64,000 bases of DNA, taken from NCBI GenBank assembly GCA_014905635.1, contig JABVCE010000018.1:310001-374000 (forward strand). Reading direction: 5' to 3'. The DNA is from Scenedesmus sp. PABB004. Its lineage: Eukaryota. Positions 32,872 through 56,472 of the stretch are shown here, piece by piece (within the stretch, counting starts at the first letter, position 1; each line of letters opens with the position of its first letter). Under the pieces are notes generated by a model. The model was not told the DNA's origin. It saw only the letters and a list, made by a program, of their open reading frames with translations, and made no database searches. A program made the position numbers and the translations under genes.

Positions 32872-34031
32872 TCACGACGCGCTCGCCTTGACGCCGCCGG
32901 GGATGAACACGCCGGTGCCCTTGTTGCTGATCTGGCCGCTCTTGACGACGTCAGCCATGGGGTGCCAGTGCGACCCCGCCCACTTGGGCGCCTGGTGCAC
33001 CGGCGGCACGTGGCGGCCGCCGCGCGCGGCGCACTCGGGCGCGCGCACGCCGGTCGGCGAGCTGCGCCCGCTGCCGCCGCTCACGCCGCTGCTGCTGCCG
33101 CTGCTGGTGAAGGACTGCACGTCGAGCGAGCCGCGGCGCGCGGCGGCGCCGGCGGCGGCGCCGGCAGCGGCGCCGGCGGCGGCGCCGCCACACCAGCCGC
33201 CGCCGAGCGCGGCGGCGGCGAGCTCGGAGCTGTACATGCTGCTGCAGTCCAGCGACATGCGGCCGCGCGGCGCGCCCGGGCGCGGCGCGCGCGGCGCGGC
33301 GGCGGCCGCGTACGCCAGCTGGTGGCCGCCGCTCGGCATGTAGAGCGCCGACTGCAGCGCCAGGTTGGTGTTGGCCGCGCCGGGCAGGCTGCTGGCGGGC
33401 GGGAGCCCGGCCGCGGCAGCGGCGGCGGCGGCGGCGGCCGCCGCCACCGCGCCGTGGTCCATCCCCCCGGCGCCGCCAAAGCTGCCAAACGCGCCGACCT
33501 GGCCCGCGCCGAGGCCGGTCACGCCCGAAAAGCTGCCGCCGCTGGCGGCGCTGGCGATGTCGAACGCCGCCATGCGCTGCGCCAGGCCGCCCAGGTCGAT
33601 GCTGTGCCGCGCCGGCTGGCGCACGGCGGCGCGCGCGGCGGCCGCTGCAGCCGCGCCCGCCGCCCAGGCCCAGTCGGCGCTGCAGGGGTCCAGGCCCGTG
33701 GAGGAGCCGAGCATGCTGCGGGGCGGGGGCGGGGCGGGGCATGGGCGTGGGCGGCGCCGTCGGCGGCAGGCGTGCAGCAGGCGTGCAGCAGGCGTGCAGC
33801 AGGCGTGCAGCAGGCGCGCGGCCCACGACCACCGCGCGCTCGCCGCGCCGCGCCGCGCCCCACCTGCTGTCGAGGGGCATCGACGGCGCCAGCGACGACG
33901 GCGGCATGCCGCCGGGCAGCGTGAGGCAGGGCGAGGACGAGGCGAGGCAGGTGAAGCTGCTCGCGCGGGCCGCGCCGCCGTCGCGCTCCACAAACGGCTC
34001 GTCCTCGAGGATGACCTGCCCGCCCTGCGCG

Positions 34032-34062
<31 letters not shown>

Positions 34063-34441
34063 TGTTGTGGCGCAGGACCTGCTTGAGCTGCAGCAGGTGC
34101 TCGATCTGCGCGTCGATGCTCTGCTCCTCCGCGCCCCCGCCGTCGCCGAGCGCCGCCGCGTGCTGCTGCAGGAGCGCAAGCAGCTCGGCCTGCTGCGCCG
34201 CGTCGGCGGCGGCCGCGGCGGCGCCGCCGCCGCCGCTCACGACCGCGTCCGCGCTGCTGAGCTGGTCGCGCGGCGGCGCGACGTCGACCTGCGCGTCGAC
34301 CCAGACGTCCTGGGTCACGACGCTAAACATGCTGTTGCCCGCGGACCCGCCGCCCGAGGCCGCGCAGGCGTCGGGGTCGCGCAGGTCGCTGCTGGTGTAG
34401 CCGGGCCAGAGGCTGAACTCGGAAGTGGTGGCCGCCATCAT
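32872..34441 (-). CDS. Hypothetical protein with one intron and a C-terminal GTGVFIP motif
   Basis: MMAATTSEFSLWPGYTSSDLRDP...EQSIDAQIEHLLQLKQVL..., intron at about 33862-33718, repeated SLD/SID motifs (RHSIDL, RMSLD, RGSLD), ending SNKGTGVFIPGGVKASAS*. Confidence 0.7.
33766..33816. repeat. 11-bp tandem repeat (GCAGGCGTGCA) x4 plus a partial copy, intronic
   Basis: Seen directly. Confidence 0.85.
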
Positions 34442-34865
34442 CGCGCGCTGCGCCTGCGCGGGGGCGGCGCCGGCCGCGCGTGGGCGTGGCGGTCGGACGA
34501 CCGCGCGACGGGAGCGCGCGCGGCGCCCCGGTGGCCCCAGCGCGCGCGCGCAGGTCGGCGAGTACTTCTCGACCCCGCCCCGCGCTGACGCGGGCGACTC
34601 GGGCCGCGCCGGCCGGGGAGCGCGTGCACCGCGCCCCGCCCGCGCCATCGCCGGCGCCGCGGCCGGCCCGGCGGCCCTCGTCGAGCCAGGCGACGCGTCG
34701 CAACCCTTGGCTGCGCCTGCCCCCCTGCTGGCGCGCCGCGATCGCCGCGGCGCCTCCGCGCGGCGTGCTCAGCGCGCCGGCCCGGAGGCTCACCTCGGTC
34801 GCGGGCGGCGGGCGGAGGCGGAGCGGGCTGATGGTTCACCGATGGCCTGCGCCGCTGCCTGGTGC

Positions 34866-36890
34866 GCGCCGGGCGGGCGTCCGGGCTGGCGGTGTGGGGC
34901 CGCGGTCGACGGCGACGGTCACGCGCGCTCTGCGGGACGCCGCCCGCGCGGCAGGCGGGACGCACGCGCGCGGCCGGGGCGGCAGGTCTCCGGGCGCAGC
35001 AGGGCTCCGCACAGCGGTCTCCCTGCGCCGGCGCGGCGCGCGCGCGGCCGCCAGCCACGACCGACGACCGCGCGCAGCGGCGCGGCGCCGCGCTCGCCGC
35101 CCCGCTCCACCCGGCGCCTTCGCGCGGGGGGGCTCCTCCCGAGGCTGCCACTGCCCCGCCAGGCTCCCCCCGCCGCGTTCGGCCGGCGCGGGAGGCCTAG
35201 CCCCCGACGCGCGTGCCCCGGCCGCCGCGGCGCGGGCCAGCAGCGGCCGCCGCGGCGCGGGCCAGCAGCGGCTGCGCGGCGCGGGCGCGGCGCGGCGTGC
35301 GCTGCTCGGCGGCGCTCGTGCGCGGCTGTCGTGCGCTGAGCGCAGCGTCCAGCCGCGGTCTCCCCACGCAGCCGGCGCGCTCCCTCGGGCCGGGGCGAGG
35401 GCTCGAGCCAAGCGCTGCGGCGCTGGCCGGCCGGCGGCGGGACGGTCGGCGCGCGCACGGCGCGGCTGGCGCGCGGCCAGCGGCGCGCGGGCAGCAGCGT
35501 GCAGCGCCGCCGAGCAGGGGGCTCCGTCACATGGCCAGGCACATGGCCCGGTCGTGGTGCCCGTAGCCCACGCGCCCCGGCCGGACAGGGTCCCACAGCG
35601 CGGGGCAGGGGTGCCCGGCCGCAGAGAGCATGTACCCCACGAGGCGCAGCGCGGAGACGGCGGCGAAGCGGTCGTCGCGCGGCGCAACCTGCTGGCCCGA
35701 GTAGATGTCGCGAAACGTGCCGCCGCGGCAGCCCGCGCACGACGCGCCGACGCCGCTGCGCGCCCGGCTCGGCGACGCGGGCGCGCGGGGGTCGGCCGCG
35801 TGGCGTGCCTCGAAGCGCGCGCGCGCGGCCGCCACGGCCGCGGGGTCCAGCAGGCGCGCCGCCTGGGCCTCAAAGGCAGCTGCGTAGAGCCCGCCGACCA
35901 GCCGGTCAGAGAGCTCGCCCTGGCGGGGCGGGGAGCGGAGCGGCGCGTCACGGCGGCGCCGGCCGCCCGCGCGCGCGGCGCGGCGTGCCGCGCCGCGCCG
36001 CACCAGCATCATGCGCTCGTGCGCGGCGGCGTAAAACGCGCACAGCTGCGCCGCCAGCTCCGCGCTGCTGCTGGCGTCGCTCGCGGCGCTCAGGCGCGGC
36101 CCGCACGCGACGGCGCCGAGCAGTGCCGGCCCAAAACCGGCGTCGCACACGCACGCCGAGCCCCGCACGGCCGCGTTGGTGCAGTCGATGCACTCGCCGC
36201 CAAACTGGCCGCTCAGGAGCTGGCCCGGCGCGCAGGCTGCGTCTGGCGGCGGGCCCCCGCCCGCCGCCAGCGGCGGTGCGGTGAAGGGGAACGCGGCCGT
36301 CAGCCCGCCCGGGTCGGCCGCCAGCGCTGCGGCCAGCGCGGCCAGGCAGGCCTGCGCAGCACGGCGGTGGGGCAGTGAGTGCGCTGACGTCGGCGGTGGC
36401 GCCGCCGCCGCCGCGCGGCAGGCGCCCGCGCGAGCGCGAGCGCGCGCGGCAGGTCCTCACCGTGCTGTTGGCCGCGTCGGCCGGCACCAGGCCCCGCGCC
36501 GCCGCCTCGCCGCACGGCGCAAACATGCCCGGCAGCGCCGCGGCCGCCTGCGGCCTGCGCCGGAGCGGCGGCAGCGCCGCGCGCAGCTGAGCTGGCTGGC
36601 CATGGCCCGCCAGGCCACACATGCAGGCGCGCCGCGTGGCTCACCGCAGGCTGCACAGCTGCCCGGCCTTGCTGCCACGCACGTGCACCGCACCGCCGCC
36701 GCCGCCGCCGCTGCCAGCGCTGGCGTCCAGCCGCGGCTCGCCGTAGGTCAGAGGCGCCAGCCACAGGTCAGGCGGCTTGGGCGGCGCACCCGGCAGGGTC
36801 GTCGGCGCCGGCGGCGCTCGCAGGGTCAGTGTGATCTCGTATCGCGTGCCTGCCCGCCAGCGGCCTGCGGCAGGCAGCGGCGCAGTCGCC
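34866..36890 (-). repeat. Inverted segmental duplication, copy A (~2.0 kb)
   Basis: Reverse complement of 41157-43161. The ORF track gives identical translations, e.g. 35705..35887(+) = 42166..42348(-), and 35527..36168(-) = the C-terminus of 41363..42526(+). Confidence 0.97.
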
Positions 36891-37585
36891 GGTGCGCGCG
36901 CGGGCCGCGCGGGCCGGCAGCCGCCGACCGCCCTGCGCGTGCGCGCGCCCGCCGCAGCGCACCCGTCAGCACCATGCAGCTGCCCGCCGCGGCGCTGGCG
37001 CCGTCCTGCTCGTCGCTGCCGTTGCGCGGCGCCGCCGCAAACGTGCCGGGCGGGACGGGCGTGCCGTCCTGGTCCGCCGACAGGCCGCCGAGCCTGCGGC
37101 GGCGGCAGCAGCGGGGCGACGCGTGAGGCTGGGCGGCGACGCGGCGCGCGCTGGAGCTGCTGCTGCGGCGCGCGGTTGCGCCGCGGCCGCGCCCGCGCCC
37201 GTGCCCGCGCGCACCCCGCGGCCGCGTAGTGCGGGTCGCGCTGCAGCACCGACGGCGCGTCGATGACCGTGAGCCCAGGCGGGAAGGGCGCGTCCGCGGC
37301 GCCCGGCGCGAAGAACGGCGCCGCGCGCCAGTCACCGCCCGGCGCGAGCAGCTGCTCCGCGCCGCCCGCCCACGGCCCGCCGCCGGCCGCCAGCGCCGCA
37401 ACGCTCGCGCTCCCGGCGGTCTGGGCCCAGGACGGGTCCGTGAGGCAGAGGAGCACGCCGTCCGGCGCGACCGCAAACGGAGTAGAGAACTCCAGGGCCG
37501 CCGCCGTGCTGCTGCCGCCGTCGGGGCCGCTCCAGGCCAGGCTGCTCCACCACAGCAGGCGACACAGCACGCCGTAGGGGTTCAT
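35527..37585 (-). CDS. Hypothetical multi-exon protein with a Cys-rich (EGF-like spacing) segment; start uncertain
   Basis: MNPYGVLCRLLWWSSLAW...LEFSTPFAVAPDGVLLCLTDP..., RWRAGTRYEITLTLR..., CAPGQLLSGQFGGECIDCTNAAVRGSACVCDAGFG, ELSDRLVGGLY...GYGHHDRAMCLAM*. Exons are bounded by GT/AG. Confidence 0.6.
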
Positions 37586-38386
37586 GAGCCCGTGAGGCGC
37601 CCGTGGACGTGGAGGAGGCCGTGGCCGCGATGTGGCAGCGCGCGCAGATGATGGCTGATGTTGACCGCCCTGCCGCGCACGACGCTGTCGCCCCTGACGC
37701 GCGGCGAGCGGTGGCGTGTTGCGAGGAGATTGGGCGACTCGGTGGCGCAGCCTCGCTGGACGCGGCGGTCGTGCTGCTGGACCCCAGCTGCCGGCGCCTC
37801 GCTGCGACCCCGCTGTCCTGCGCGGCCGAAGCCGGACGCGGCGAGCGAAGGGGAGTGCGGCCGTGTCGTAGATTACAGGTGCAGCGGCGACGGCCGCGCC
37901 CCCGGGCGAGGCCGCCGCGCGTGCAGCACACGCCCCTGGCCGCGCGCGCCGGGCGCCACGCAGGCATCCGCCGGTCCCCTGCTGCGAGCCGCAGCCTCCG
38001 CCCCGCCGCCCCCCAAAACGGCCCCGCCCCGCCCCGCCGCCTCGCCCGCCCGCCCCGCTCACAGCGCTACCTGACGCCCCGCCGCCGCCCCGCACTCCGT
38101 GCCCGCGCCGCCGCCCGCCCGCTGAGCAAACTCACAACTCGTCGAGTACAGGGGGGATACACACGCCGGCCGGCGCGCCGCGGCGCGCACTGCGATGCGT
38201 GCTGCGGCAGCCCGCCCCGCGCGCGAGCCAGCGACCGCGCCCGCCGCGGGCGGCGAGCTGCCGCGCCGCTCGGCTGCGGCCGCGCGCGCGCGCGCCGCCC
38301 GGGCGCCTCGCCTCCCACACGCCGCGCGCCCGGGGCGCCGCGCGCGCCGCGCGGGCGCCCCGCCGCCGGGCTTCGGCGGCGCGCGC

Positions 38387-40655
38387 TCAGTAGCGCGCGG
38401 CGGGCGCGCCGAACTGGTTCTGGGAGGTCTGCAGCAGCAGCCTGCGCGGGCGCGGGGCGGCGCGCGGCGTCGGCGGCCGCCCCGTGGCTGAGAGCCGGGC
38501 GCCCGCCCGCCGCGGGGCCGCGCGCGCCGCGGGGCCGCGCCCGCGCGCCGCCGCGCGCTCACCGCCTGCGCGAGGACTCGCCAGCTGCTGCGTCCGCGGC
38601 CGGCGCCGCGCCGCTGCCCGCCGCCGCCAGCGCGGCGCGCTCGGGCGGCGCGCCCGCCGGCTGCTGCTGCTGCTGCTGCTGCTCCGCGCCCGCGCCCTCG
38701 GGCCGGGGGTTGGCCTGCCGCTGCAGGTTCTGGTTGTGCACGTGCTTCAGCACGGTCCAGTCAAACACGTAGTCCCAGTGGTAGCCTGCGCCGCGGCGGC
38801 GGCAGCGTCGGCGTCCCGCGCCCGCGCCCCGCGCCGCGCCGGCGCCCTCTCCCCGCGCCCCCTGCCCGCGCCGCTCCCCGCGCCCCCTCCCCGCGCCCGC
38901 GCCCCCGCGCCCCCGCGCCCCCGCGCCCCCGCGCCCCTGCGCCCCCGCTCGCCCTGCCCGCCGCGCCGCACCCTCGCGCGCGAAGAGGTCGCGGAAGACC
39001 TTGCGCAGGTAGGAGTAGTCGGGCTTGTCGTCGAAGCGCAGGCTGCGGCAGTACTGGAAGTAGGTCGTGAACTCGACCGGGTAGCCGCGCGTGAGCAGCT
39101 CGATCGGCGTGCTCATCTTCTTCTCGCTGATCTTCTCGTACTTCTGGCGCTTCGTCGCGGCCTTGAGGCCCTGCCAGGGCAGCGAGCCGCGCAGGAAGTA
39201 CATGAGCACGTAGCCGAGCGACTCCATGTCGTCGCGGCGCGACTGCTCGATGCCGAGGTGCGTGTTGATGCTCGCGTAGCGCGCGGTGCCGGTGAGGTTC
39301 TTGTTCTCGCGGTACGGGATGTGGATGTGGCTCTTGGGGTCGCGGTACTTCTTGGCGAGCCCAAAGTCGATGATGTGCACCTGCGCGGGGCCGGCCGGCC
39401 GCGCGGGCGACGGGCGCGCGCACGCGCGCGCGCGCGTCGGCGCCGGCGCTGGCCGAGGCGGGCGCGCGGCGCCGGCGCTCGCGGGCGCGCGGCGCCGGCG
39501 CGCGACTGCTGAGGCGTGCGCGCGCCTGGTTGGCCTTCTTGCCGAGGCCCATGAGGAAGTTGTCGGGCTTGATGTCGCGGTGGATGAAGCTCCGCGCGTG
39601 AACAAACTCCACGCGCGACAGCTGCGCCACGGCGCGCGCGCGGGGCAGGGCCGTGGGCGCGCGCGGCCGCCGCCGCCCGCGCCGCGCCGCCCGATCGCCG
39701 CCGCCGCGGCGCCCGCCGCTGCCGTGCCCGCCGCTGCCGCGGCGCCCGCCGCCAGCGCGCGGTCTGCTCGCTGCCCGCCGCTGCCGCCGCGCCGCGCCGC
39801 GCCGCCCGCCGCTGCTGCTGCGCCACGCGCCGCGCGCCGCCGCCTCGGCGGCCGCGGCCGCACCAGCTGGTCCGCCAGCATCAGCACCGTCTTGAGGCTG
39901 AACTTTCTGTTGCAAAAGTTGAACAGGTCCTCCAGGCTGGGGCCGAGAAGGTCGATGACCATCACGTTGTAGTCGCCCTCGACGCCGTACCAGCGCACGT
40001 TGGGGATGCCGACTGCCGGCGCGGCGCGCGCGTGGCACGGGTCAGCGGGGGGCCCGCCCGCCCCGCGCGGGCGGCGCGCGCGGCGCCGATCGGGCGCGCT
40101 GCGGCGCGGCGGCGCGCGCGCGCGGGGCAGCAGCGGCGCCGGCGCCGCGCCCGCGCCCGCGCCGCGCGCGCACCGCCGCCCTGCAGGATCTTGTAGAGCT
40201 TCGACTCGTACAGCAGCTGCGGGTGCTTGGTCTTGACGCTCTCCTGCGGGCGGCCGGCTTGTGAGGGGCGAGGCCGGGGCGTGCTGCTGCTCCCGGTGGC
40301 GCCAGCGCGCCAGGACGCCCCCTCGCGCGGCGGGGGCGCACCAGTTTGATGGCCACCTCCTCGCCGGTCTGGATGTTGGTGCCTGCGGGGCGGCGGGGGG
40401 CCCGGGCGCGCGCGTGGGCGGGGCGGGAGTGCGCGATGCGGCCCCGCGGTCGCCCCCGGGCGCCCCGGGGCGCTCCGCGACGCCCCGCCGCGGCGGTCAC
40501 CGAGGTAGATGTCTCCGAAGGACCCGCCGCCTGCGGGCGGGGCGCCAGTCAGCGGCGCGCGGCAGCGGGGCGCGCGGTGGTCGCGCCGCGGGCGCCGCCC
40601 CACCTATCTTGCGCCCCAGGCGGTACCGCCCCGCGATACGGATGTCCAGCGCCAT
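38387..40655 (-). CDS. CK1: Casein kinase 1
   Basis: [56 protein letters not shown]..., [68 protein letters not shown] probable last exon [17 protein letters not shown] ends at 38387. Confidence 0.98.
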
Positions 40656-41156
40656 GGCTCGACGACTCGCGGGATCGCCACGCTCGCCCAACTACTGCGC
40701 CATCGCGCTCCGCCTCGCGCGGCCGGTCTCGCTCGCAGCCCGTCGCGGGGAGGCGGCCTGCTGTCGGCGGGCGGCGCGGAGCAGGGGGGCCCGGGCGGGC
40801 TGGGCGCGGCGAACCTCGGCGCCCGCCCAGCTCTCTCGCCGGTCGACGACGCCCCGCGCCCCCGCCGGCGCCGATCAGAGCGACGCGCCCCGCCTGCCGC
40901 CCGCCGCGCCCCGGCGGCGCAGCAGGCGGCCGCCCGCACGCGGCGGTTGCCACCGCGGCGGCGCCAGCGCGCCGCGCGGCGTGCGCGCCGGCCGGCCTCG
41001 CCCCCGGCACGGGCGTGCCCCCCTGCCACGCTGCCGGCAGCCCGGCTCCCTCAGGCGGCGGCCGCCGCCGCTGGCCGCCGCGCGCCGCCGTGCACGCTGC
41101 TGCCCGCGCGCCGCGGCCCGCCGCCGGTCGAAGCAGCGCGCCGCGCCGCACGAGCG

Positions 41157-43161
41157 GGCGACTGCGCCGCTGCCTGCCGCAGGCCGCTGGCGGGCAGGCA
41201 CGCGATACGAGATCACACTGACCCTGCGAGCGCCGCCGGCGCCGGCGCCGACGACCCTGCCGGGCGCGCCGCCCAAGCCGCCTGACCTGTGGCTGGCGCC
41301 GCTGACCTACGGCGAGCCGCGGCTGGACGCCAGCGCTGGCGGCGGCGGCGGCGGCGGCGGCGGTGCGGTGCACGTGCGTGGCAGCAAGGCCGGGCAGCTG
41401 TGCAGCCTGCGGTGAGCCGCGCGGCGCGGCTGTGCGGCCCGGCGGGCCATGGCCAGCCAGCTCGGCTGACGCGCGGCGCTGCCGCCGCTCCGGCGCAGGC
41501 CGCAGGCGGCCGCGGCGCTGCCGGGCATGTTTGCGCCGTGTGGCGAGGCGGCGGCGCGGGGCCTGGTGCCGGCCGGCGCGGTCAACAGCACGGCGAGCAC
41601 CTGCTGCGCACGCTCGCTCGCGCTCGCGCGGGCGCCTGCCGCGCGGCGGCGGCGGCGCCACCGCCGACGTCAGCGCACTCACCGCCCCGCCGCCGTGCTG
41701 CGCAGGCCTGCCTGGCCGCGCTGGCCGCAGCGCTGGCGGCCGACCCGGGCGGGCTGGCGGCCACGTTCCCCTTCACCGCACCGCCGCTGGCGGCGGGGGC
41801 CCGCCGCCAGACGCAGCCTGCGCGCCGGGCCAGCTCCTGAGCGGCCAGTTTGGCGGCGAGTGCATCGACTGCACCAACGCGGCTGTGCGGGGCTCGGCGT
41901 GCGTGTGCGACGCCGGTTTTGGGCCGGCACTGCTCGGCGCCGTCGCGTGCGGGCCGCGCCTGAGCGCCGCGAGCGACGCCAGCAGCAGCGCGGAGCTGGC
42001 GGCGCAGCTGTGCGCGTTTTACGCCGCCGCGCACGAGCGCATGATGCTGGTGCGGCGCGGCGCGGCACGCCGCGCCGCGCGCGCGGGCGGCCGGCGCCGC
42101 CGTGACGCGCCGCTCCGCTCCCCGCCCCGCCAGGGCGAGCTCTCTGACCGGCTGGTCGGCGGGCTCTACGCAGCTGCCTTTGAGGCCCAGGCGGCGCGCC
42201 TGCTGGACCCCGCGGCCGTGGCGGCCGCGCGCGCGCGCTTCGAGGCACGCCACGCGGCCGACCCCCGCGCGCCCGCGTCGCCGAGCCGGGCGCGCAGCGG
42301 CGTCGGCGCGTCGTGCGCGGGCTGCCGCGGCGGCACGTTTCGCGACATCTACTCGGGCCAGCAGGTTGCGCCGCGCGACGACCGCTTCGCCGCCGTCTCC
42401 GCGCTGCGCCTCGTGGGGTACATGCTCTCTGCGGCCGGGCACCCCTGCCCCGCGCTGTGGGACCCTGTCCGGCCGGGGCGCGTGGGCTACGGGCACCACG
42501 ACCGGGCCATGTGCCTGGCCATGTGACCGCGCCTCCTGCTCGGTGGCGCTGCACGCTGCTGCCCGCGCGCCCCTGGCCGCGCGCCAGCCGCGCCGTGCGC
42601 GCGCCGACCGTCCCGCCGCCGGCCGGCCAGCGCCGCAGCGCTTGGCTCGAGGCCTCGCCCCGGCGCGCGGGAGCGCGCCGGCTGCGTGGGGAGACCGCGG
42701 CTGGACGCTGCGGTCGGCGCACGACAGCTGCGCACGAGCGCAGCGCAAAGCCGCGCACGAGCGCCGCAGCGCACGCCGCGCCCGCGCGCCTGCGCCGCGC
42801 AGCCGCTGCTGGCCCGCGCCGCGGCGGCCGGGGCACGCGCGTCGGGGGCTAGGCCTCCCGCGCCGGCCGAACGCGGAGCCTGGCGGGGCAGTGGCAGCCT
42901 CGGGAGGAGCCCGCGCGAGGGCGCCGGGGGAAGCGGGGCGGCGAGCGCGGCGCAGCGGCGCTGCGCGCGGTCGTCGGTCGCTGCTGGCGGCCGCGCGCGC
43001 GCCGCGCCGGCTCGTGCCGGGAGCCCTGCTGCGCCCCGAGACCTGGGCCCCGGCCGCGCGCGCGTGCGTCCCGCCTGCCGCGCGGGCGGCGGCGCGCCCT
43101 CACACCGCGCACGCCTGTGGAGTGCGGCCCCGCCAGCCAGCCCGGACGCCCGCCCGGCGCG
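41157..43161 (+). repeat. Inverted segmental duplication, copy B (~2.0 kb)
   Basis: Matches the reverse complement of 34866-36890. The core is near-identical and the ends are more diverged. Confidence 0.97.
41183..42526 (+). pseudogene. 5'-truncated duplicate of the 3' exons of the 35527-37585 gene
   Basis: Starts at an intron acceptor (ccgcag|gccgctgg, about 41182). Exons are open and end at the same GYGHHDRAMCLAM*. No upstream exons or ATG are evident before the CK1 start region. Confidence 0.7.
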
Positions 43162-43287: not shown

Positions 43288-44086
43288 ATGGGACTCGACT
43301 ACTACTCGATTTTGGGCGTGGCGCGCGGCGCGAGCGCGGACGAGCTCCGCAAGGCCTATCGCAAGCAGGCGAGCCCCGAACGCGTCGCTGCCGGCTCGCA
43401 GAAGGCCGCGGCACCGATCCGCGGCGGCGCCGGAAGCCGACGCGGGCCGCGCGCCGCTGCTGCGCGCCGGAACCGCCGCTGCGCGCCGCAGGCGGTCCGG
43501 TTTCACCCGGACAAGAACCCCAACAACCGCGACTACGCGGAGGCGCGTTTCAAGGAGGTTGCAGAGGCGTACGACGTGCTGAGCGACCCGGCGAAGCGGC
43601 GAGTTTACGACGCGTACGGCGAAGGTGCGCGCCGCGCAGGCCGGCCGCGCTGCGCGCCCGCGCGGCGTGCGTGCTGCGCGCGCGCGTGTGCTGCGCGCCC
43701 GCGGCCGCCGCCGACACCCGCGCGCGCCGCGGCGCCGCAGAGGGCCTGAAGGGCGGCGCGCCGCCCGGCGCGGCCGCGGGCGGCGCGGGCCCGGGCTTCA
43801 GCTACGGCGGCGTCGACCGCGCCACTGCGGAGCGGCTGTTCGAGAGCCTCTTTGGCGGCGGCGGACCGTTCGGCGGCATGGGCGGCATGGGCGGCGGCGG
43901 GGGCGGCCCGTCGAGCTTTTTCTTCAGCACCGGCCCCGGCGGCGGCGGTTTTGCGTCCGGCGCCGGCCGCCCTGGCAGCGCGCCGGAGGGCTTCCACCAC
44001 GCCTTTGGCGGCTTTGGCGGCGCGCCGGGCGGCTTTGCCGGCTTTGGCGGCGGCTTTGGCGGCGGCGGCGACGAGGAGATGTTTGA

Positions 44087-44128
<42 letters not shown>

Positions 44129-45108
44129 GGGGGCCGGTCCCTTCTCCGCGTTCCCGCGCGCCGCGCCGCGCGGCGGCGGCGCGCAGCCCTTCTTCCAGGC
44201 CCGCGCGCCGCGCCGGCCCAACGCTGCGCCCGGCGCCGCCGGCGGCTGGGCCGGCGCGCACCGCGCGGCGCCCGGCGCCAGCGCGGCGCAGCACCAGGTG
44301 GTCGCGCTGCAGCTCAGCCTGGAGGAGCTGTTCCGGGGCGGGACCAAGCGGCTCAAGGTGAGGTGTCGGAGCGCGCTGCGCTCAGCGCGCTCCGTGCGCG
44401 CCTGGCGCTGCCGGCGGTGCGCTGCCCGCGCGCGCTGCCGCGCGACGCGCAGCCTCACGGCCGCCGCCGCGCCGCCAGGTCACGCGGCACGTGCTGGATG
44501 CGGCGAGCGGCAAGTCGCTCCCGGTGCAGGAGGTGCTGGAGGTCGCAGTCAAGCCGGGCTGGAAGGAGGGGACCAAGGCGCGCTCGCGCGCTGCCAGCCG
44601 CCGGCTGCGCGTGGGGCAGCCGCAACGGCCGCAGCGGCGGCAGCCGCTCGCCGCTCGCGCGCTCACGCCGCCGCTCGCGCTCACGCCGCCGCCGCCGCTG
44701 CGCGCTGCCCGCCGCCGCGCGCTGGCGCAGATCACGTTTGCGGGCAAGGGCGACGAGCTCGCGCCGGGCGGGCCGTGCGCCGACCTGGTGTTCGTGGTGA
44801 AGGAGGCGCCGCACCCCACGTTTGAGCGCCGCGGCGACGACCTGGTCGCGGCGCTGCGCGTGCCGCTCGTGACCGCGCTCACGGGCGGAGCCGCGTCGCT
44901 GGTTGCGCTCGACGGCCGGCCCCTGGAGGTGCCGATCGCGCCGCCGCTCGCGCACGGCGCGGCGCTGCGCGTGCCGGGCGAGGGCATGCCGCGCAGCAAG
45001 CAGCCGGGCGCGCGCGGCGACCTGCTGCTGCGCGTGGAGGTGGCCATGCCGGACCGGCTCACCGCGGCGCAGAAGGCGGCGCTCCGGAAGTGCCTGCCGG
45101 CCGAGTGA
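43288..45108 (+). CDS. Class II (DNAJB-like) Hsp40 J-domain protein
   Basis: [37 protein letters not shown] (HPD motif)...[13 protein letters not shown], a long G/F-rich region, then C-terminal [30 protein letters not shown]. No zinc finger. Confidence 0.96.
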
Positions 45109-45451: not shown

Positions 45452-47245
45452 ATGGCTCCCGCCGCGCTTCGCGTGCTGGCCCTAATCAGCCTCGCGGCCG
45501 TCGCGGCAGCGGCTGCAGCGCCCGCGGCCGAGCTGCGCGACTGCCTGAAGCCCCCCGCGCAGCTGCGCCCGACCACCATGGACGACTTTGTCAGCGGGCG
45601 GCCGACGCGGTGAGGCGGGAGCGCGAGCTCAGCGCCGAGCGACAGCCAGCTCGCCGCCGCTGGCGAGCGCCCACCGCCGGCGCGCGCCACCGCCGCAGGC
45701 TGCTGCTCCACCGCGCCTGGACGAGCGAGGCCCCGGCCGTGCCGCTCACGCTCTTCACGGGCCTCACGGCTGACAGGCTGGACCAGCTCGAGGCGCAGTG
45801 CCGGCACTGGCCGGGCGGCCTCGCGGCCGCGCTCTACGTGCCCGTGCTGTGGCCCAGCGGCGACGACGCCTCGCCGCCCGCGGAGCTCGCCGCCACGCTG
45901 GACGCCGCGGCGGCGGGCGTGGAGGCGCTGCGGGCGCGGTGAGGAGGCCGCGCCGCGGGCGCGCGCGCGCGCGCGGACGGCGGCCGCGGCGGCCCGGCCG
46001 ACCCGCGCCCCGCGCGCAGGCTCGCGGCCGCGCCCGGCAGCTGCGCGCTGGACGTGCTGCTGCTGTACGAGCCCGTCGCCGACGCGCGTGTGGCGGAGCT
46101 GCTGCCGATCAACGCGCTGCGCAACCACGCCGCGCTCGCTTGCCGCACGCGGCTCGTGGCAATGGCCGACGTCGACCTGCTGCCGGGCGCTGAGCTCGCG
46201 GCCTTCCTGCGCGACGCCGACGGCGTGCGCTGGCTCGAGCGCGTCACGCGCCAGCGCGGCGTCGCGGTGGTGCCCGCGTTCCAGACGGCGGTGCAGCTCA
46301 ACCTCAGCGCGGGGCACGGCCTCGCGGCGGCGGTCGCGGCGGTGCCGAGCAAGGCGCGGCGACGTCGCTCGCGCGGCGCGGCGCGCCCCGCGGCGCCGCT
46401 GCCGACCCGCCGGCGCCCACTCCCCCGCCGCCGCTGGCGGCCGCCAGGACGCACTGCGCGGCCTGGTGGAGCAGGGCTTGGCATACCAGTTTCACGTGAC
46501 CCACTTCCGCTGGGTGCGCCGACGGGCCCGCGCGGGCCGCGCCTGCCACGGCCCCTGCTCTCTGCCGCGGCTGACCGCGCCGCGCCGCGTATGCGCCAGG
46601 GGCACGACTGCACCAACGTCAAGCGCTGGCTGACCAGCGACGAGCCCTACTCCGTGCGGCGCTGCTGGAGCGGCAACTACGAGCCCTGGTGCGCCACGCT
46701 GCGCCGCCGCGCCTGCACACAGCCCCGCGCGCTCACGCCGCACCACCGCTGGCGGCTGCAGGTTCATTGTCGACCGCAAGCTCAACCCGCCGTATGACTC
46801 GGTCTTCCGGGGCTACGGCTGGAACAAGGTCTCCCACGTCACCGCGGTCTACCACGCCGGGTGCGCGAGCGGCCGGCCGGCGAGGCGCGCGGGCCGCCGG
46901 CGCAAGGAGCAGCGGCCGGCCCCTCTGCTCAGATCAGCCGCCGCCGCCGCCGCCGCCGCCACCACGCGCCGCAGGTTTGACTTTCAGGTGCTGCCGCGCG
47001 GCTTCTTCGTCCACCGGCAGCACGACGTGTCGCCCATTTCGGCGCGGTACTACGCGTCGCCGGCGAGCGAGGCGGCGCCGGCGTCGCCCGGGGCGGGCGG
47101 GGCGCGGCCGACCAACGTGCGCGCAGTGGTCGGGAGTTTTAGGGATGCGGCCCTCGCGGCGCTCAAGCAGGGCTCCTACTCGCCCGCCGTCGACGACGGT
47201 GTCAAGGCCTGCCGCGCCAAGCTCTCCTGGTGGGGTGCGCAGTGA
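45452..47245 (+). CDS. Glycosyltransferase family 49 (LARGE/B4GAT1-like) with an N-terminal signal/anchor
   Basis: Hydrophobic N-terminus, [25 protein letters not shown], DxD motif [51 protein letters not shown]. Confidence 0.88.
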
Positions 47246-53000: not shown

Positions 53001-53360
53001 CGCCGCCAGGCGCGTGATGGGCGGCAGCAGCGGCGGAATGATGGGGCTGGTGGCGCGCTCGCGCAGCACCGTGGCCGTCAGCTGCGGCACGCGCGGGCGG
53101 CGCACGGGGTGGGGCGGGTGGCGGTGGGTCGAGTTCAAACGCCGTGCCGCGCATTGCCGCGCCGCGGATGCCACGGGGCCGCGCGGGGCTGGCAGGCAGG
53201 TGCTGTCGAGCACGCCGAACGACCTGCGGGCTGGGCCCGCGGCGGGTGCGCGCGCGGCCGAGCGCGCCCGCGCCGCGCCGCGCCGCACCGCCGCCGCGGC
53301 CAGCGCGGTCGCGCCGAGCAGCTGCTTGGCCGCGCACGACAGGGCGCCGTTGGTGTGGGG
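50059..53360 (-). CDS. Ala-rich multi-exon hypothetical protein; 5' end uncertain and may extend into the direct repeat
   Basis: Coding-like segments MEASAAAHVAAARAWALAL...LAALAGG|, PIACVSWPGAQHYLPQDIAPSYRW, ELLVQLAE...CWSTGPDVFAWAVQERDWD. A frame switch occurs near 51505. Confidence 0.5.
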
Positions 53361-53881
53361 CTCGCCGGTCGGCTCACGGTCGCCGCTGGCGCGCGCGGGG
53401 CGTGCGTGTGCGTGCCCGCCCCGCCCGGCGAGGCCTGGCGCCGCATGGCGGGGCCCGCAGCGCGCGCACGGCAGCGCCGGGGCGCGGCCCTGCCACGCCG
53501 CGCCGCCGGGTCGCGCCGCGGACCGGATCGGGCCCGGCGTCGGCGCGCGCGCCGGGTGCATGCTTGCAGACGTTGCGCCCAAAATCGAGCTCGGGGCGCG
53601 CGCTCGCGCGTCGGCGGCGCCGCGGGGTGGTCGCTGTGCGTGCGGGCGCGCCGAGGACGTGGCTGGCCCAAGGGGTGTCCCCACCTGACTGGCCTAGGGT
53701 TGGGCGGTTTGGCGCTGCTGCGGCGCGGCGCCGGCGTGGTCTCGCCTGAACGGGCGGCTGTGTGCTGGCGCGCGTCCCAGAGCGCGCACAGCGCGGCAGC
53801 TGCGCCCGCACGTGTGATCGCTTAGGACCGGCGCAGCACCGCACGCCCCTTCCGCCCCTGCTGCCGCTGCTGTGCCGCGGC
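53179..53881. repeat. Direct segmental repeat, copy 1 (~700 bp)
   Basis: Near-identical to 55580-56216. Confidence 0.96.
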
Positions 53882-53942
53882 GGCGCTCACCACCGCCGCC
53901 GCTGCGGTGGGTGCAGCGGGAGGCCCGCCGGCGATCGCCTGG

Positions 53943-55549: not shown

Positions 55550-55579
55550 CGCGCCCAGGGCGCGCACGGACGGCGCGGA

Positions 55580-56216
55580 CCGCGCGGGGCTGGCAGGCAG
55601 GTGCTGTCGAGCACGCCGAACGACCTGCGGGCTGGCCCGCGGGGGGCGCGCGCGCGGCCGAGGGCGGCCGAGCGCGCCCGCGCCGCGCCGCGCCGCACCG
55701 CCGCCGCGGCCAGCGTGGTCGCGCCGAGCAGCTGCTTGGCCGCGCACGACAGGGCGCCGTTGGTGTGGGGCTCGCCGGTCGGCTCACGGTCGCCGCTGGC
55801 GCGCGCGGGGCGTGCGTGTGCGTGCCCGCCCCGCCCGGCGAGGCCTGGCGCCGCATGGCGGGGCCCGCAGCGCGCGCACGGCAGCGCCGGGGCGCGGCCC
55901 TGCCACGCCGCGCCGTCGGGTTGCGCCGCGGACCGGATCGGGCCCGGCGTCGGCGGCGCCGCGGGGTGGTCGCTGTGCGTGCGGGCGCGCCGAGGACGTG
56001 GCTGGCCCAAGGGGTGTCCCCACCTGACTGGCCTAGGGTTGGGCGGTTTGGCGCTGCTGCGGCGCGGCGCCGGCGTGGTCTCGCCTGAACGGGCGGCTGT
56101 GTGCTGGCGCGCGTCCCAGAGCGCGCACAGCGCGGCAGCTGCGCCCGCCCGCGATTGCTGGAGCGGCGCAGCACCGCACGCCCCTTCCGCCCCTGCTGCC
56201 GCTGCTGTGCCGCGGC
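55580..56216. repeat. Direct segmental repeat, copy 2 (~640 bp; lacks a 71-bp block)
   Basis: Near-identical to 53179-53881. Confidence 0.96.
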
Positions 56217-56472
56217 CGGCACGTCGCAGCGACCGCCGCCCGGCGCCGCCGCTCGGGTGCGTCGCATCGGGGCTTGGCGCCGACCAGGCCGCCGCGTCGC
56301 CGACCGCCGCAACCGGTAGCCACAGTCCACACGCGCAGCCTGGTCGAGAGAGCAGAGCAGAGCGCCCCAGCTGTTGCGAGGGCTCGCCGAAACGGGCTGA
56401 TCGGGCCCATGCCGCCGCGCGCGAGCTCCTAGGCCGTCGGCCGTGCCGCGGTGACTGCCGGAGCCGTCCCGG

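Follow-up and report, generated by a model that had tools for sequence, protein, structure and literature searches.

The window analyzed here is a stretch of 64,000 nucleotides (nt) from the green alga Scenedesmus sp. PABB004 (GenBank assembly GCA_014905635.1, contig JABVCE010000018.1, positions 310,001 to 374,000 of the forward strand); all coordinates given below are counted from its first letter. It harbors a long inverted repeat. The left arm of the repeat, arm A, is the 3' part of a spliced gene designated gene X in this work, and the right arm, arm B, is a truncated second copy of the same part. The segment enclosed by the two arms carries the first two exons of gene X together with the whole gene of a casein kinase I, CK1.

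The inverted repeat and gene X

The window was compared with itself by blastn. The repeat was returned as a single inverted high-scoring segment pair (HSP) joining 34865-36890 to 43161-41157, with 93.9% identity over 2047 columns and E = 0; the HSP includes 62 mismatches and 30 gap openings. A repeat search of the window also recovered the inverted match, as a chain of blocks I1 to I8. The inverted repeat is real and lies far above chance expectation. Arm A comprises 2026 nt and arm B 2005 nt, and the spacer between them (36891-41156) has a length of 4266 nt. The boundaries of the repeat are sharp at the inner and at the outer ends of the arms. In both arms the inner edge is located 26 nt upstream of the exon-3 acceptor AG, within intron 2 of gene X. 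The repeat and its spacer are composed as follows.

34865-36890, minus strand: arm A, consisting of the last 26 nt of intron 2 and exons 3-6 of gene X and 662 nt past the stop codon (blastn HSP)
41157-43161, plus strand: arm B, a 5'-truncated copy of gene X without exons 1-2 (blastn HSP)
36891-41156, no strand: unique spacer with gene X exons 1-2, the whole CK1 gene and 501 nt upstream of the CK1 ATG (blastn and gene models)

A previous description made from the letters of the DNA, here called the sequence-only reading, had placed inverted copies of about 2 kb around an interval of 4.3 kb, had located the whole CK1 gene and the 5' exons of the gene at 35527-37585 inside this interval, and had set the inner boundary about 25 bp before an intron acceptor. 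The HSP, the gene models and the measured distance agree with it on all of these points.

The intact copy of gene X was modeled from homology and splice sites, which also define each of its exons.

35527-37585, minus strand: gene X, intact copy, with a coding sequence of 1557 nt, 518 amino acids (aa) and six exons
37585-37215, minus strand: gene X exon 1
37093-36963, minus strand: gene X exon 2
36864-36645, minus strand: gene X exon 3
36554-36461, minus strand: gene X exon 4
36351-36004, minus strand: gene X exon 5
35919-35527, minus strand: gene X exon 6

Every intron of this model has GT-AG borders. The model could be aligned end to end with nine full-length chlorophyte homologues at identities of 29.0-45.6%, the Tetradesmus protein being the closest. 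Copy A is still joined to exons 1-2 and is predicted to encode the full conserved protein. No second copy of exons 1-2 was found in the window, either by tblastn with filters or by blastn and tblastn, and blastn with the 5' part of gene X gave just two weak GC-rich matches elsewhere, with 72% and 69% identity. Since the window contains a single copy of exons 1-2, the intact gene is regarded as ending in arm A, with arm B as the copy.

Relatives of gene X were searched for with different parts of the locus. A word-indexed protein search with an open reading frame (ORF) of 309 aa, in which 8000 candidates were scored, revealed the 520-aa protein P0001 as the sole relative of the 3' part of the arm, from a candidate list that was probably saturated by GC-rich low-complexity words. 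P0001 matches the unique sequence directly inside arm A as well. An exhaustive search with the 496-aa read-through ORF at 36641-38131 returned 53 proteins at E ≤ 1e-3, among them 11 at E ≤ 1e-10; some of the weakest of these 53 proteins look like low-complexity matches. The full-length members of the family (443-558 aa) match in two stretches, which correspond to the regions of exon 1 and exon 3 and lie in one protein. Ten clusters were looked up, and all named ones are green-algal (Tetradesmus obliquus, Haematococcus lacustris, Chloropicon primus); the family also includes a member from Tetraselmis chui and MMETSP transcripts. Judged by these alignments, gene X is a single conserved gene of a chlorophyte-wide family, and the matches by themselves would place the host among the chlorophytes, perhaps close to the Sphaeropleales. 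An alignment of 14 family members contains 29 invariant columns, and 11 of the 29 are cysteines. Some of the family members (proteins P0001-P0061) carry a C-terminal REL or GEL.

Additionally, gene X was examined at the level of domains and structure. No Pfam family matched gene X. In the ESM Atlas the highest feature score was 0.86, short of the lead level of 0.9, and the Atlas model had a predicted local distance difference test (pLDDT) value of 0.37. An AlphaFold2 model of the homologue P0022, built with 14 sequences, reached a mean pLDDT of 55.9. A Foldseek search of the PDB with this low-pLDDT model yielded no match at E ≤ 0.001; the best match (E = 4.8e-3, template modeling values of 0.18/0.26) was to immunoglobulin-like adhesin domains and was treated as no result. 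A metagenome scan with the copy-A ORF of exons 5-6 gave 596 pattern matches and a scan of genome contigs with exon 6 gave 594, none of which was confirmed in either case. The metagenome scan with the family protein P0002 returned one contig of 3.7 kb (L001) with a match of 29 residues.

The truncated copy and the near-identical core

Copy B has kept the exon-intron structure of its parent, with exons 3-6 and introns 3-5 all present at 90-100% identity each. The following features were assigned to it and to the part in which both arms are nearly identical.

41183-41411, plus strand: copy-B counterpart of exon 3 (pairwise alignment)
41499-41592, plus strand: copy-B counterpart of exon 4 (pairwise alignment)
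41593-41594, plus strand: intron-4 donor, GC in copy B and GT in copy A (alignment)
41706-42049, plus strand: copy-B counterpart of exon 5 (pairwise alignment)
41792-41840, plus strand: 4-nt deletion in exon 5 (within 41792-41797) and the resulting premature stop (41838-41840) (alignment and translation)
42134-42526, plus strand: copy-B counterpart of exon 6 (pairwise alignment)
35526-36261, minus strand: near-identical core in arm A (alignment)
41792-42527, plus strand: near-identical core in arm B (alignment, block I1)

Comparison of copy A with copy B revealed 94.8% identity for exon 3 (3 mismatches, and two insertions in B, of 6 and 3 nt, that keep the frame), 90.1% for intron 3, 96.8% for exon 4, 91.2% for intron 4 (4 additional nt in B) and 98.0% for exon 5 (3 mismatches and 4 nt fewer in B). 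Intron 5 and exon 6 are 100% identical, and so is the stop codon. The 3' flank shows 86.5% identity with 39 mismatches and 18 gap events. The changes found in copy B comprise the replacement of the GT donor by GC, two in-frame indels, 4 nt gained in intron 4 and 4 nt lost in exon 5, the loss shifting the frame. Two small protein differences listed in the sequence-only reading, PPAPTT versus PPAPAPTT and ADAANST versus AGAVNST, are both present in the translations.

The 4-nt deletion splits two blocks that follow each other directly and share one frame in copy A, as they do in the Tetradesmus protein. When exons 1-2 of copy A were joined to exons 3-6 of copy B through the homologous splice sites, the reading frame was shifted and a stop was reached at codon 320 of 520, at window position 41838. 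Such a chimera, read through the frameshift, loses the conserved cysteine-rich C-terminal half. The long open frame of copy B (41306-42526, 406 codons) consists of two different frames fused by the deletion and contains no in-frame ATG before 42041. Distal to the frameshift, the coding sequence of B shows one synonymous change as compared to A. The sequence-only reading had described the 3' exons of both copies as open up to a common stop; exon 6 and its stop codon are indeed shared, but the premature stop in the shifted frame of B contradicts that description. On alignment and translation, copy B is incomplete and disabled, and not an intact alternative cassette.

A further detail concerns the length of the copy. 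The 4 nt gained by B in intron 4 and the 4 nt lost in exon 5 are 190 nt apart (36446-36260 against 41611-41797) and cancel in length, and the register of the repeat moves by 4 between blocks I2 and I1. Read-through of intron 4 was considered as a rescue of the B frame and was rejected: both indels cancel, but reading ends outside the conserved frame according to the ORF translations. The pairing of the two indels may be a coincidence.

The core extends from just past the 4-nt deletion to one base beyond the stop codon. It contains 1 mismatch in 736 nt, and its longest identical run amounts to 643 nt (36168-35526). For the expected number of differences, exons 3 and 4 together with proximal exon 5 supplied the coding rate, and introns 3 and 4 the intron rate, which makes the expectation conservative; 22.9 differences were expected and 1 was observed (Poisson P = 2.6e-9). 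Upon uniform placement of the 83 difference events, a run of ≥643 nt occurred in 0 of 200000 simulations. Because an 84-nt intron within the core is unchanged and 651 coding nt carry a lone difference, which is synonymous, gene conversion is favored over purifying selection. We therefore infer that the core is a recent gene-conversion tract.

An indel limits the tract at one end, and the 3' flank, rich in indels, limits it at the other. Its limits would be explained by heterologies that halt the extension of heteroduplex, or by selection against conversions that move the frameshift into copy A. That it coincides with the still-intact coding block may be due to chance, to heterology barriers or to selection. 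Outside the core, 8 mismatches were counted in 404 nt of exons versus 49 in 817 nt of non-coding sequence (Fisher P = 0.0013). Constraint on copy A would account for part of this exon likeness, perhaps not for all of it.

Neighboring genes and scan for recombinases

Two further genes lie inside and next to the repeat.

38559-40655, minus strand: CK1 (casein kinase I) coding region, several exons (phmmer against PDB, Pkinase fragments)
43288-45105, plus strand, end approximate: DnaJ-type chaperone gene (Pfam DnaJ, E = 5.9e-21; DnaJ_C, E = 6.6e-27)

CK1 is read from the minus strand, with its ATG at 40655 and its stop codon at 38561-38559. A phmmer search of the PDB with the CK1 read-through ORF returned 3sv0_A at E = 2.9e-102 and CK1 delta chains at about 1e-99. 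A distance of 501 nt separates the CK1 ATG from the start of arm B upstream of it, and arm B and CK1 are oriented head to head. The ATG of the DnaJ gene at 43288 is found 126 nt past the outer edge of arm B. With both strands counted, the region from 33 to 45 kb contains a lone TGTAA, at 37873, about 690 nt downstream of the CK1 stop codon and 288 nt ahead of the ATG of gene X; the motif is absent from the 3' flank of gene X in both arms.

Several other observations were made in the surroundings. An 8-nt tandem array (CCCCGCGC-like) with at least 6 overlapping copies of a 54-nt register is located at 38875-38968 in the CK1 gene region and probably sits in a CK1 intron. Downstream of the DnaJ gene, at 45943-46794 on the plus strand, a Pfam Glyco_transf_49 fragment was detected (E = 1.2e-8), which is probably one exon of a glycosyltransferase gene. 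Long runs of GCG and CTG triplets occur at 33128-33235, 34009-34071 and 44029-44184. Furthermore, the window contains a second segmental duplicate in direct orientation, 53176-53902 and 55577-56239, with a start-to-start distance of about 2.34-2.41 kb. It consists of blocks of 394 and 298 columns with 94.9% and 95.0% identity, and 205 nt of the second block are 100% identical. A direct duplicate at about 95% identity suggests that segmental duplication is nothing unusual in this genome.

The G+C content is 74-84% in every 2-kb bin, and 351 stop-to-stop ORFs of ≥130 aa are found in the six frames of the 64 kb. Since this G+C content leaves six frames open almost everywhere, open frames carry no information in the window. 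The 155 stop-to-stop ORFs of ≥130 aa overlapping 24000-54000 were compared with Pfam. None of them matched a recombinase, integrase or transposase family, in a scan based on ORFs that would miss a recombinase split by introns or encoded elsewhere. Five of the 155 matched any Pfam family, namely Pkinase twice, DnaJ, DnaJ_C and Glyco_transf_49. The sequence-only reading had likewise seen no recombinase.

Origin of the locus and possible crossover between the arms

We favor, with a probability of about three in four, the explanation that the locus consists of a nuclear gene and an inverted, truncated, unprocessed and decaying pseudogene copy of it with a recent conversion tract, a pair that permits occasional inversion. 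In a single event, the tail of gene X, from the last 26 nt of intron 2 through exons 3-6 to about 660 nt of its 3' flank, would have been duplicated, with the copy ending up inverted at a distance of 4.3 kb, flanked by the CK1 upstream region and the DnaJ gene. The event could have been either a duplicative insertion or an inversion with staggered breaks that duplicated the breakpoint segment. In Drosophila, staggered breaks at inversions leave inverted duplications at the breakpoints; as there, a unique segment is found here between inverted copies, one of which is still joined to its original neighbor. The pattern of divergence suggests that the arms still interact by homologous recombination. 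As the arms are inverted, a conversion-associated crossover between them would now and then flip the 4.3-kb spacer. A duplication or inversion scar had been the fallback of the sequence-only reading; it turns out to be the best-supported account, and recent gene conversion has to be added to it.

The consequences of a crossover would depend on its position. Upon homologous crossover, the inner part of each arm would travel with the spacer. The likeliest site of homologous recombination is a long perfectly matching stretch, and since the core is the only one, crossover would be expected there. A crossover in the core would flip the 4.3 kb and join copy-A exons 1 to proximal 5 to a distal sequence with one synonymous change; the gene X protein would remain unchanged with the 3' flank alone altered, and CK1 would keep more than 1.1 kb of its own upstream sequence, so that the flip would be protein-neutral for both genes. 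If the crossover occurred on the proximal side of the deletion, gene X would acquire the frameshift and be truncated. This proximal region comprises 630 nt with about 94% identity and identical runs of ≤92 nt. As predicted from these reading frames, no full-length variant protein is obtainable from cassette B, which would allow at most a silent flip or an off-switch. It had been proposed that a crossover between the arms inverts CK1 and joins the 5' exons to the other 3' cassette, restoring a full gene; the geometry of this proposal holds, but its alternative cassette is lost, B being frameshifted. The locus may represent an inversion polymorphism. As far as its sequence indicates, it does not serve to switch between 3' exons, and nothing shows a programmed switch.

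Some points weigh against a pseudogene copy with a conversion tract. The gene X model was derived from homology and GT-AG rules and not from RNA. The exons outside the core differ somewhat less than a freely drifting copy B would lead one to expect, which possibly leaves room for some constraint on B or for an older conversion. The tract spans precisely the interval between the frameshift and the stop codon, which could point to selection acting on the coding block in both copies. The core could also have been homogenized artificially by consensus polishing of the assembly, a caveat for repeats that is raised in a yeast study (PMC9731477).

The closest known kind of locus is, judged by its architecture, a gene with an inverted unprocessed pseudogene. 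The human pairs SORD/SORD2P and IDS/IDS2 and the F8 int22h repeats are of this kind and undergo gene conversion and inversions by non-allelic homologous recombination, as described in PMC12632684. Like these pairs, the algal locus has a nearby inverted copy with conserved exon-intron structure and high identity, and gene conversion is indicated. In the human pairs crossover inverts the intervening DNA, whereas in the alga such an inversion is a prediction. Unlike the human copies, the algal copy contains 3' exons only and resides in a green alga; moreover, a crossover in its core would keep the gene intact and not break it.

Other explanations were weighed against a gene with a pseudogene copy. 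The locus is almost certainly not a switch in which a 3' cassette is inverted site-specifically, as in bacteria and phages (shufflon, Gin/Hin-type). Such a switch has only the geometry in its favor, that is, the position of the repeat edge shortly before a splice acceptor, minor coding differences in exons 3-4 and, like in the Mu G segment and the R64 shufflon, a constant 5' gene part for which two inverted 3' parts would be available as partners. The Mu G segment with Gin and the R64 shufflon depend on a serine or tyrosine recombinase and on short crossover sites, and their divergent cassettes are intact. In the alga, a recombinase family was found in 0 of the 155 scanned ORFs between 24 and 54 kb, the repeat is a whole 2-kb gene tail instead of short sites, and cassette B is frameshifted, with a distal coding sequence equal to that of A save one synonymous change. 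The host is a eukaryote with spliced genes, and we know of no nuclear site-specific invertible cassette switch. Copy B could also function as RNA, giving rise to antisense or hairpin small RNAs directed at gene X or to a truncated or non-coding transcript from the divergent CK1 promoter. In plants, small-RNA loci are known to arise from inverted duplicates of target genes, arm B lies head to head with CK1 only 501 nt from its ATG, and the exons outside the core are somewhat more alike than neutral sequence. A hairpin would, however, require a transcript of about 8.3 kb through CK1, and one block at 100% identity with the rest decaying points to conversion rather than constraint; a function as RNA is very unlikely. 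An assembly artefact, in which one arm or the spacer orientation was mis-joined or two haplotypes were stitched together, is quite unlikely. In a short-read assembly the identical core of 643 nt could not be bridged by reads, so that the linkage of inner and outer parts of the arms could be arbitrary. The 62 mismatches and 30 gap openings between the arms argue against an artefact, as do the sharp edges and the unique genes on both sides, with CK1 and gene X exons 1-2 inside and the DnaJ gene and another gene outside; a fold-back chimera would yield a perfect palindrome without a unique spacer of 4.3 kb.

A flip/flop region that works without recombinase has more in common with the locus. In Ogataea polymorpha two identical inverted repeats of 2 kb flank an invertible MAT region of 19 kb, and a truncated part of SLA2 lies within the repeats, according to PMC5720833. 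The flip in this yeast is described there as induced, as taking place by no dedicated site-specific recombinase and as changing which MAT genes are silenced. If the algal locus acted in this way, homologous recombination between the 2-kb arms would invert the 4.3 kb often or under regulation, and the 3' UTR (untranslated region) and neighborhood of gene X would be changed or gene X would be turned off via the imported frameshift. Long inverted repeats flanking a unique segment, as found in flip/flop regions driven by homologous recombination, are present, and the architecture resembles that of Ogataea, with a 2-kb inverted repeat that includes a truncated copy of a flanking gene (SLA2' in PMC5720833). 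The conversion tract indicates that the arms have recombined, and both gene X and CK1 would be whole in either orientation if the crossover occurred in the core. On the other hand, the repeats of the known systems are identical or continually homogenized along their length, as portrayed in PMC5720833 and PMC9731477, whereas the algal arms are 93.9% identical overall and have been homogenized over 736 of about 2030 nt, the remainder showing 86-97% identity and about 30 indels. No protein would be altered by a core crossover and, unlike in Ogataea, no consequence for expression is evident. A frequent or regulated flip/flop is quite unlikely.

A region of chromosome XIV of Saccharomyces provides a related case. 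It comprises 24 kb between continually homogenized inverted repeats of 4 kb and re-inverts on evolutionary timescales; re-inversion is described as a by-product of conversion, and the state as stable on laboratory timescales (PMC9731477). As in this region, inverted paralogous gene sequences appear to be homogenized by conversion in the alga. Both yeast copies are functional and about 4 kb are homogenized, whereas the alga has one broken fragment and 0.74 kb of homogenized sequence. It is improbable that the segment with CK1 and the 5' part of gene X flips recurrently via the arms, without recombinase, in the nucleus of a green alga. We have similarly little confidence in the effects that recurrent flipping would have, namely that gene X receives another 3' UTR and another downstream neighbor through crossovers distal to the frameshift and that it is turned off and back on by rarer proximal ones.

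The significance of the finding as it stands is small. The locus calls for caution in annotation, as copy B shows an open frame of 406 codons that is not a gene. If frequent flipping were true, flip/flop regions that do without a recombinase would extend from yeasts to green algae, and the locus would be a simple natural on/off or 3'-UTR switch. As a gene with a truncated pseudogene copy, it is a clear-cut case of partial gene duplication in inverted orientation, with a conversion tract of sharp limits, in an algal genome that is extremely rich in G+C, and it marks a place where an inversion polymorphism may occur.

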